The notes below the pieces were generated by a model that saw nothing but the letters and a program-made list of their open reading frames with translations, ran no database searches and was not told the DNA's origin. The position numbers and the translations under genes were made by a program. A stretch of 64,000 nucleotides of DNA, from NCBI GenBank assembly GCA_046497505.1, contig JAWOFN010000112.1:8834-72833 (forward strand). The letters are read 5' to 3'. Numbering within the stretch: the stretch's first letter is position 1; each line of letters opens with the position of its first letter. Below, one piece after another: positions 48,355 through 49,518 of this stretch. The stretch is from a bacterium (GTDB lineage Bacteria; Blakebacterota; Blakebacteria; Blakebacterales; JAWOFN01).

Positions 48355-49518
48355 ATGTCCGAGGCCGTCGTCCGCAAAGGGATCTTCGTCCTCCTCGGGG
48401 GCGCCCTGCTGGTGAGTTCCGGTATCAGCTTCTATCGCAGCCGGAATTTGCCCGAGCCGGTGGTGCTGGGTCCCGGGGTCACCCGTGTCGAGAAGCTCAG
48501 CACCTGGTCCGACGGGGTGGCGGGGACGGTGAACGACTGCAACGTCTATTTCCTCGAGGGGGAAGAACCCGGTGCCACGGCCGTGGTCATGGGGGGCAGC
48601 CATCCCGAGGAGCCCGCCGGCCGCCTGGCGACGTGGATCCTCGCCGAACAGGCAGAGATGAGGCAGGGCACCCTGATCGTGGTGCTCAGCGCCAACCGGA
48701 GCGCCAGCACGGTCACCCGGGTCAGCGGGGCCTATCCTCCCGACTACACCATCGAGACCCCCTGGGGCTCCCGGACCTTCCGCATGGGGGACCGATGGTC
48801 GAACCCCCTCGACCAGTGGCCGGACCCCGAGGTCTACATCCACTATCCCAGCCGTCAGAACCTGGCCTACGTGGACATCCGCAACCTGAACCGGACCTGG
48901 CCCGGTCGGCCGAACGGCACCCTCACCGAGCGTACCTCCTTCGCCTTCATGGAACTGATTCGGGAGGAGGGGGTGGACCTGTTCATCGACCTCCACGAGG
49001 CGGAACTCCAGTACCCGGTCATCAGCACCATCGTGGCCCACGAGAGGGGAGAGGACCTGGCGACCTTCGTCTCCATGTGGCTCACCGACCTGGAGGGTTT
49101 CAACATGGGCATGGAGTTCAGCCCGAAGAGTCTGCACGGACTGAGCCACCGGGAGGTAGGGGACCACTCCGGGGCCGTCTCCCTCCTCTTCGAGGCCCCC
49201 GAACCGTTCCTGGACGCCACACGGGGCCGGACGACGAGGGAGGGCCTCCTCACCGGCATCGATCCCTTCGTGGTGAAGGCCGGCGAGCACGGACTCCTCT
49301 TCGAGAGGATCGACGAGACCGGATGGCCCATCGAGAAGCGGGTGGGCCGCCACCTCTCATCCATCCTCCAGACCTTCGAGACATGGACCGAGCTGGACCC
49401 GGAGCATCCCCTCTCCTGTACCGGCGTACCCCGGTACGCGGAGGTAGTGGAACAGGGGGTGGGGAAGTGGCTTCGCGACCCCTCCGCGGCCCCATCCGAC
49501 CGGGTAATCTACGAGTGA
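48355..49518 (+). CDS. membrane-anchored zinc hydrolase of the succinylglutamate desuccinylase/aspartoacylase (M14-like) superfamily; candidate gamma-glutamyl polymer hydrolase
   Basis: N-terminal TM anchor (IFVLLGGALLVSSGISF). GGSHPEEPAG, an HxxE zinc motif as in AstE/AspA and M14. A downstream IDLHEAE His-Glu segment. TAGGAGG RBS. Confidence 0.55.
   Translation: MSEAVVRKGIFVLLGGALLVSSGISFYRSRNLPEPVVLGPGVTRVEKLSTWSDGVAGTVNDCNVYFLEGEEPGATAVVMGGSHPEEPAGRLATWILAEQAEMRQGTLIVVLSANRSASTVTRVSGAYPPDYTIETPWGSRTFRMGDRWSNPLDQWPDPEVYIHYPSRQNLAYVDIRNLNRTWPGRPNGTLTERTSFAFMELIREEGVDLFIDLHEAELQYPVISTIVAHERGEDLATFVSMWLTDLEGFNMGMEFSPKSLHGLSHREVGDHSGAVSLLFEAPEPFLDATRGRTTREGLLTGIDPFVVKAGEHGLLFERIDETGWPIEKRVGRHLSSILQTFETWTELDPEHPLSCTGVPRYAEVVEQGVGKWLRDPSAAPSDRVIYE

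Follow-up and report, generated by a model that had tools for sequence, protein, structure and literature searches.

To our knowledge, the biology of poly-γ-glutamate (PGA) is known almost entirely from Bacillus, and its synthesis, retention and recycling in diderms are a gap; Fusobacterium nucleatum is the only Gram-negative bacterium that we know to have been shown to make PGA. It is given as a PGA producer in the passages of two later papers that refer to the original work (Candela 2009, cited in PMC3815933, PMC4928254). Bacillus regains glutamate from its own PGA through the endo-acting PgdS and the exo-acting GGT (PMC4928254). PgdS (an endo-acting NlpC/P60 enzyme) and GGT/CapD (Ntn hydrolases with an exo or anchoring action) are secreted, and their genes are found beside pgs or are co-regulated with it (PMC4928254). 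The PghP protein of phage ΦNIT1 (PF05908) and its Bacillus paralogues YndL and YoqZ are zinc γ-glutamyl hydrolases and distant kin of carboxypeptidase A (CPA; PMC4497714). Literature searches on DUF6305, the TIGR04332-type protein, PGA together with succinylglutamate desuccinylase, and pgsB/pgsC/DctM found no study of the module described here and no characterization of its putative hydrolase.

Gene order in the window

The window, meaning the whole stretch of 64,000 nucleotides that was analysed, carries on its + strand, in this order, genes for a PgsB-like ligase, PgsC, a TIGR04332 protein, a DUF6305 protein, a 430-aa permease, a 54-aa open reading frame (ORF), the AstE-like protein studied here and a C69 peptidase. 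The PgsB-like ligase (43494-44651, +) scored 169 bits against TIGR04012, below the cutoff of 222.7; PgsC (44641-45078, +) reached 99.7 bits against TIGR04011 (cutoff 96.45), and the TIGR04332 "poly-γ-glutamate system protein" (45080-46174, +) 290.6 bits (cutoff 100). A classical PgsBCA(E) cluster was not found in the window: the PgsB-like protein is sub-cutoff, PgsA/CapA is absent, and TIGR04332 is present instead. With a ligase that does not reach the PgsB equivalog cutoff, the cluster might make something other than classical γ-PGA.

The next four genes are colinear on the same strand (46257-49518, +) and are called the core below. They encode a secreted DUF6305 protein (46257-46862, +), a DctM-like permease of the ion-transporter superfamily with 430 aa (46877-48169, +), a 54-aa membrane protein with two helices (48180-48344, +) whose gene has an AGGAGG ribosome-binding site, and the AstE-like protein (48355-49518, +). 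The C69 (Ntn-hydrolase) peptidase that follows (49550-51211, +; PF03577, E = 2.5e-60) is secreted, with a signal peptide and then the Cys of ESC|TSIMVG. The earlier note had placed the AstE-like gene directly after the pgsBC-led genes and before the C69 gene; it does follow the former and precede the latter, but between it and PgsC stand four genes, among them the 54-aa ORF, which the note had not mentioned. A promoter and terminator scan of 43000-52400 returned no sites, a result that is uninformative for a high-GC organism, and neither Rfam families nor tRNA genes were detected in the window.

The AstE-like protein and its active site

The AstE-like gene is an ORF of 387 aa with an ATG start, and AGGAGG lies 8 nt 5′ of that start. 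We annotate its product as a membrane-tethered zinc carboxypeptidase of the M14/AstE-AspA type. It is not a chance ORF: more than 4600 homologues were found, and a set of 28 diverse representatives (28-64% identity; alignment A1) has H83, E86, H214 and E280 throughout; R147 and R180 are also invariant in this set. At the N-terminus, a hydrophobic helix (residues ~9-27; 48379-48435, +) is a signal anchor or a signal peptide, and the AlphaFold2 model shows residues 3-30 as a single helix, in agreement with the transmembrane anchor named in the earlier note.

The HxxE zinc site that the same note had read in GGSHPEEP (residues 80-87; 48592-48615, +) was upheld: its zinc ligands H83 and E86 (H83-x-x-E86) do not vary in A1 or in a further alignment, A3, and the segment aligns with GANHGDEY, the zinc motif of DoeB. 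H214, the third zinc ligand, lies in DLHE (48988-48999, +), which aligns with the DfH/DlH motif of DoeB and 2qj8; H214 is invariant in the family, including A3, and D212 and E215 are also conserved. Between these motifs, RNLNRTWPG (48880-48906, +), with the invariant or near-invariant residues R176, N177, N179, R180, P183 and G184, aligns with NLNRsFPGR of DoeB and 2qj8. The predicted protein thus has the HxxE...H zinc triad and the Asn-Arg pair of the AstE/AspA family. A segment of about 50 residues (117-169; 48703-48861, +) is specific to the family and holds the invariant R147 and the signature DQWPDP; in the DoeB alignment, residues 116-170 stand against only ~8 DoeB residues. A genome-collection scan with the pattern [PF][LI]DQWPDP, built on alignment A2, retrieved at least 545 confirmed relatives from species-level genomes. 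Toward the C-terminus, H265-R266-E267 (49147-49155, +) is invariant in A3, and E280 (49192-49194, +) in both A1 and A3.

Profile and structure searches support the assignment to an AstE/AspA-M14-type zinc hydrolase, as the earlier note had suggested. Pfam PF24827 (AstE_AspA_cat) matched residues 172-266 only, at 29.9 bits (E = 5e-7; cutoff 25), and the scores of relatives (20.7-41.8 bits) straddle that cutoff. The top PDB sequence matches were AstE/AspA-family proteins (DoeB 6twm, E = 1e-5), and the DoeB equivalog TIGR02994 was not reached (28.3 bits; cutoff 402.7). PF00246 (Peptidase_M14) did not match even at E ≤ 10. The protein has the M14 α/β catalytic fold, and its candidates for CPA Glu270 and Arg127, matched by position and spacing, are the invariant E280 and R147. 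The β-rich C-terminal domain with which AstE/AspA enzymes enclose their small N-acyl amino acid in the site was not found in the AlphaFold2 model, where the C-terminal region is mainly helical. Csd4 was the top structural neighbour and MpaA was also retrieved, at 13% identity and with nothing beyond the shared fold; Foldseek TM-scores to M14 carboxypeptidases of the γ-glutamyl type were just 0.33-0.44. PghP, whose structure we take to be 3A9L, was missing from the fold ranking, and close structural likeness to it was not observed; its family, PF05908, was matched neither in Pfam at E ≤ 10 nor in the profile search of the PDB with the same limit. The earlier note had called the fold common to PghP; by the literature (PMC4497714) this holds only as a remote, clan-level relationship, and PghP was not matched by sequence, profile or fold ranking. 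Taken with the conserved residues, these results support a catalytically intact AstE/AspA-M14-type zinc hydrolase with a predicted N-terminal anchor.

In M14 and AstE enzymes, an Asn-Arg pair of the NLNR type binds the free C-terminal α-carboxylate. By analogy, N179 (present in at least 90% of the 28 representatives and invariant in A3) and R180 would anchor the α-carboxylate of the substrate, and R147 with the NLNR motif probably corresponds to the transition-state and carboxylate-anchoring residues of M14/AspA enzymes. E280 would act as the general base in catalysis, the role of Glu270 in CPA and of Glu178 in AspA. R266 precedes E280 by 14 residues; an equal spacing separates Asp256 from Glu270 in CPA, and Lys330 from the Glu two residues past Thr342 in BcCCP (PMC3940198). 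Judged by this spacing, R266 may be the S1′ basic residue that selects an acidic C-terminal residue. The invariant basic residues R147, R176, R180, R266 and R329 would suit an acidic substrate, and the conservation of every hydrolytic residue indicates real hydrolysis. Since the N179-R180 pair is retained, exo-trimming appears to be favoured and endo-depolymerization disfavoured.

The N-side flank of the helix has a more positive net charge than the C-side in 72 of 80 family members, which suggests an N-in/C-out topology. In some members the anchor is replaced by a cleavable signal peptide or a lipobox, and signal peptides are present on DUF6305, C69 and GGT. The catalytic domain is predicted to face outward, on the periplasmic face of the inner membrane. 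This orientation would also suit an endo-acting γ-PGA depolymerase like phage PghP or Bacillus PgdS, cutting nascent or surface polymer for size control or release. In its favour, the AstE-like gene lies in one tightly spaced operon with the PgsB-like, PgsC and TIGR04332 genes; Bacillus pgdS lies directly 3′ of pgsBCA (PMC4928254), and PghP is a zinc enzyme related to CPA (PMC4497714). However, the AstE-like protein appears to keep the exo-type carboxylate anchor, and we consider an endo-acting depolymerase distinctly improbable.

The core and its neighbours across genomes

DUF6305, permease and peptidase are colinear in all 78 loci where tblastn detected the three genes (77 by the automatic adjacency test, plus locus L023, whose DUF6305 and permease matches abut). 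Loci with the core occur in at least seven phyla, with representatives in Gemmatimonadota, Acidobacteriota, Bacteroidota, Ignavibacteriae, KSB1, NC10, Fusobacteriota and Armatimonadota. All annotated loci have a gene of 48-54 aa between those for the permease and the peptidase, and tblastn detected it in 76 of 89 loci; the C-terminal tail of its product, LR(L/I)xx(I/L)K, is conserved.

The permease is 64-76% identical across phyla, and that of the window shares 31% identity over 413 aa with its Fusobacterium orthologue (E = 2e-64). The orthologue matches PF06808 (DctM) end to end (33.6 bits; cutoff 23.8), as does the permease of locus L091. The window permease itself gave just a weak Na_H_antiporter match in Pfam, and none of the NCBIfam models matched the permease of the core. 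A canonical DctQ or DctP partner is absent, and DUF6305 is a single-domain protein without the two-lobed fold of known periplasmic solute-binding proteins. DUF6305 was also considered as a paralogue of the TIGR04332 domain, with which it shares a "GxSxxG" look, and this was rejected: BLASTP found nothing, and hhalign, run with a 67-sequence alignment for DUF6305 and a 45-sequence alignment for TIGR04332 (the window and 44 loci), gave a probability of 0.5%. The synthase is not an obligate partner of the AstE-like protein; DUF6305, the DctM-like permease and the 54-aa membrane protein are.

The wider neighbourhood was scored in 42 fully flanked loci (with 6-10 kb of flank available). At least one of PgsB, PgsC and TIGR04332 was near the core in 27 of them, so that the synthase module is facultative; GGT was present in 7, C69 in 33, and at least one of the pgs genes, GGT or C69 in 40. 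GGT adjoins the core in all seven loci of the divergent branch, with up to five GGT paralogues around one core. F. nucleatum has GGT, the core, PgsB, PgsC and TIGR04332 in a single cluster, where GGT, PgsB, PgsC and TIGR04332 exceed their NCBIfam cutoffs and the permease exceeds the Pfam DctM cutoff. This genomic company ties the AstE-like protein to γ-glutamyl chemistry; the γ-glutamyl link drawn in the earlier note is supported by the pgs genes, by GGT in the divergent branch and by the module inside the Fusobacterium PGA cluster.

In 12 of the 42 loci, the core had neither pgs genes nor GGT within the available flanks, which suggests that it does not depend on a PGA synthase nearby and that its substrates may be ordinary peptides. 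The neighbours in loci without pgs include an M28 peptidase, an amidase, an esterase, an ABC1 kinase, MacB/FtsX, a hybrid histidine kinase and cytochrome bd; an alternative polymer synthase was sought among the neighbouring genes of these loci and none was found. The core could then serve peptide and amino-acid scavenging, with the AstE-like protein as a general nutritional carboxypeptidase or deacylase without γ-glutamyl specificity and the linkage to PgsBC and GGT due to shared glutamate/nitrogen regulation. The M28 aminopeptidase, amidase and esterase genes that flank loci without pgs, the M16 and M28 peptidases downstream in loci L001 and L004, the annotation of C69 enzymes as dipeptidases and the action of the closest sequence relatives, such as DoeB, on small N-acyl amino acids are consistent with this. 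We regard it as rather unlikely, since GGT in the whole divergent branch and pgs genes in 27 loci are hard to explain without a γ-glutamyl substrate, and the invariant basic residues would suit an acidic one.

GGT with a dipeptidase is the classical pair for glutathione breakdown, and the loci of NC10 and digester genomes have GGT and C69 but no pgs. The substrates might therefore be small γ-glutamyl compounds other than PGA, in glutathione catabolism or in the recycling of murein peptide (L-Ala-γ-D-Glu-mDAP), with uptake of the products. Two structural neighbours, Csd4 (PMC4220969) and MpaA ("murein-tripeptide amidase" in its PDB title), cleave γ-D-Glu-mDAP, but their likeness is that of the shared fold, and the position of the core inside PgsBC-TIGR04332 clusters in most loci, including the window, would be left unexplained. 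This alternative is improbable in our judgement.

Genes for 2-oxoacid:ferredoxin oxidoreductase and a GntR regulator flank the core in three loci, and AsnC regulators occur in two loci with the core. A biosynthetic or export role was also weighed, in which the core replaces PgsA/PgsE in diderms and the peptidase-like protein guides, primes or anchors the polymer without degrading it. PgsA is absent while the core and TIGR04332 accompany PgsBC in the window and in Fusobacterium, the unusually conserved permease and peptidase suggest a complex, and the ~50-aa membrane protein recalls PgsE/CapE in size. However, DctM-type proteins are carriers of small solutes, many loci have the core without pgs, the conserved hydrolytic residues point to real hydrolysis, and GGT and the oxidoreductase genes are catabolic neighbours. 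An accessory of export is very improbable on this evidence.

Proposed role and comparison with known systems

We propose, with confidence somewhat short of even, that the AstE-like protein is an exo-acting carboxypeptidase for γ-glutamyl substrates and supplies a module for the salvage and uptake of glutamate, its substrate being suggested by gene neighbourhood and residue analogy. The tethered catalytic domain would remove C-terminal glutamate from γ-glutamyl chains or fragments at the periplasmic face, or split γ-Glu-Glu; in the window, that substrate would most likely be made by the neighbouring PgsB-like/PgsC/TIGR04332 synthase. The secreted C69 peptidase next door, or GGT in other lineages, would work alongside, and the DctM-like permease would import the freed glutamate. 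In this scheme the exo mode, the specificity for glutamate, the topology and the link to transport are inferred, and the overall role would be polymer turnover and salvage, not capsule release. The earlier note had favoured a PghP-like depolymerase that trims the polymer or releases it. Salvage and uptake fit better, because the Asn-Arg pair is kept and argues for an exo mode, the obligate partners are not the synthase, and the core occurs in 12 of 42 loci without pgs or GGT.

A bolder version, which we find doubtful, is that the core is a hydrolase-fed secondary transporter: a DctM-type permease that lost its canonical DctQ/DctP partners would form a tight complex with the ~54-aa protein, DUF6305 and the tethered carboxypeptidase, and the clipped glutamate would pass straight into the carrier. 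If so, many diderm phyla, that of Fusobacterium among them, would have a dedicated system to produce PGA, keep it external to the cytoplasm and reclaim its glutamate, and the core may define a TRAP-like carrier in which an enzyme replaces the binding protein. PgsBC clusters without PgsA recur in at least seven phyla with one highly conserved, so far undescribed module, plus GGT or C69. Since F. nucleatum, which is culturable and clinically important, has the module, the hypothesis is directly testable, and a functional context for DUF6305 and the ~54-aa protein family would follow.

The AstE/AspA enzymes have a β-rich C-terminal domain, and the members known to us are cytoplasmic deacylases of small N-acyl amino acids. 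Their family (PF24827: the N-acetyl-DABA deacetylase DoeB/EutE, aspartoacylase, succinylglutamate desuccinylase and CphZ) gives the AstE-like protein a borderline and partial match. The protein differs from these enzymes by its membrane tether, its predicted periplasm-facing position and the extra DQWPDP segment of ~50 residues, which is much shorter in DoeB-type enzymes. The M14 enzymes that cut γ-glutamyl-type bonds (Csd4 of Helicobacter pylori, MpaA of Escherichia coli, CCP5 and the bacterial CCPs 4a37 and 4b6z) are 13-16% identical to it, and Csd4 has a Gln/Glu/His metal site and two additional β-domains, unlike the AstE-like protein (PMC4220969).

PghP is a small soluble endo-hydrolase of ~23 kDa with tri- to pentapeptide products (PMC4497714), whereas the AstE-like protein keeps an exo-type anchor and has no likeness to PghP by sequence, profile or fold ranking. 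PgdS and GGT/CapD are unrelated to it in fold and mechanism; GGT works from the free-amino end of the chain and a carboxypeptidase from the carboxyl end. The PGA turnover genes of Bacillus are not known to have a dedicated transporter linked to them, unlike those of the core. As in the TRAP (DctPQM) systems, the DctM-matching permease of the core is joined by one small membrane partner and one secreted partner; in place of a DctP/TAXI binding protein and a four-helix DctQ, the core has the ~54-aa protein, DUF6305 and a tethered peptidase.

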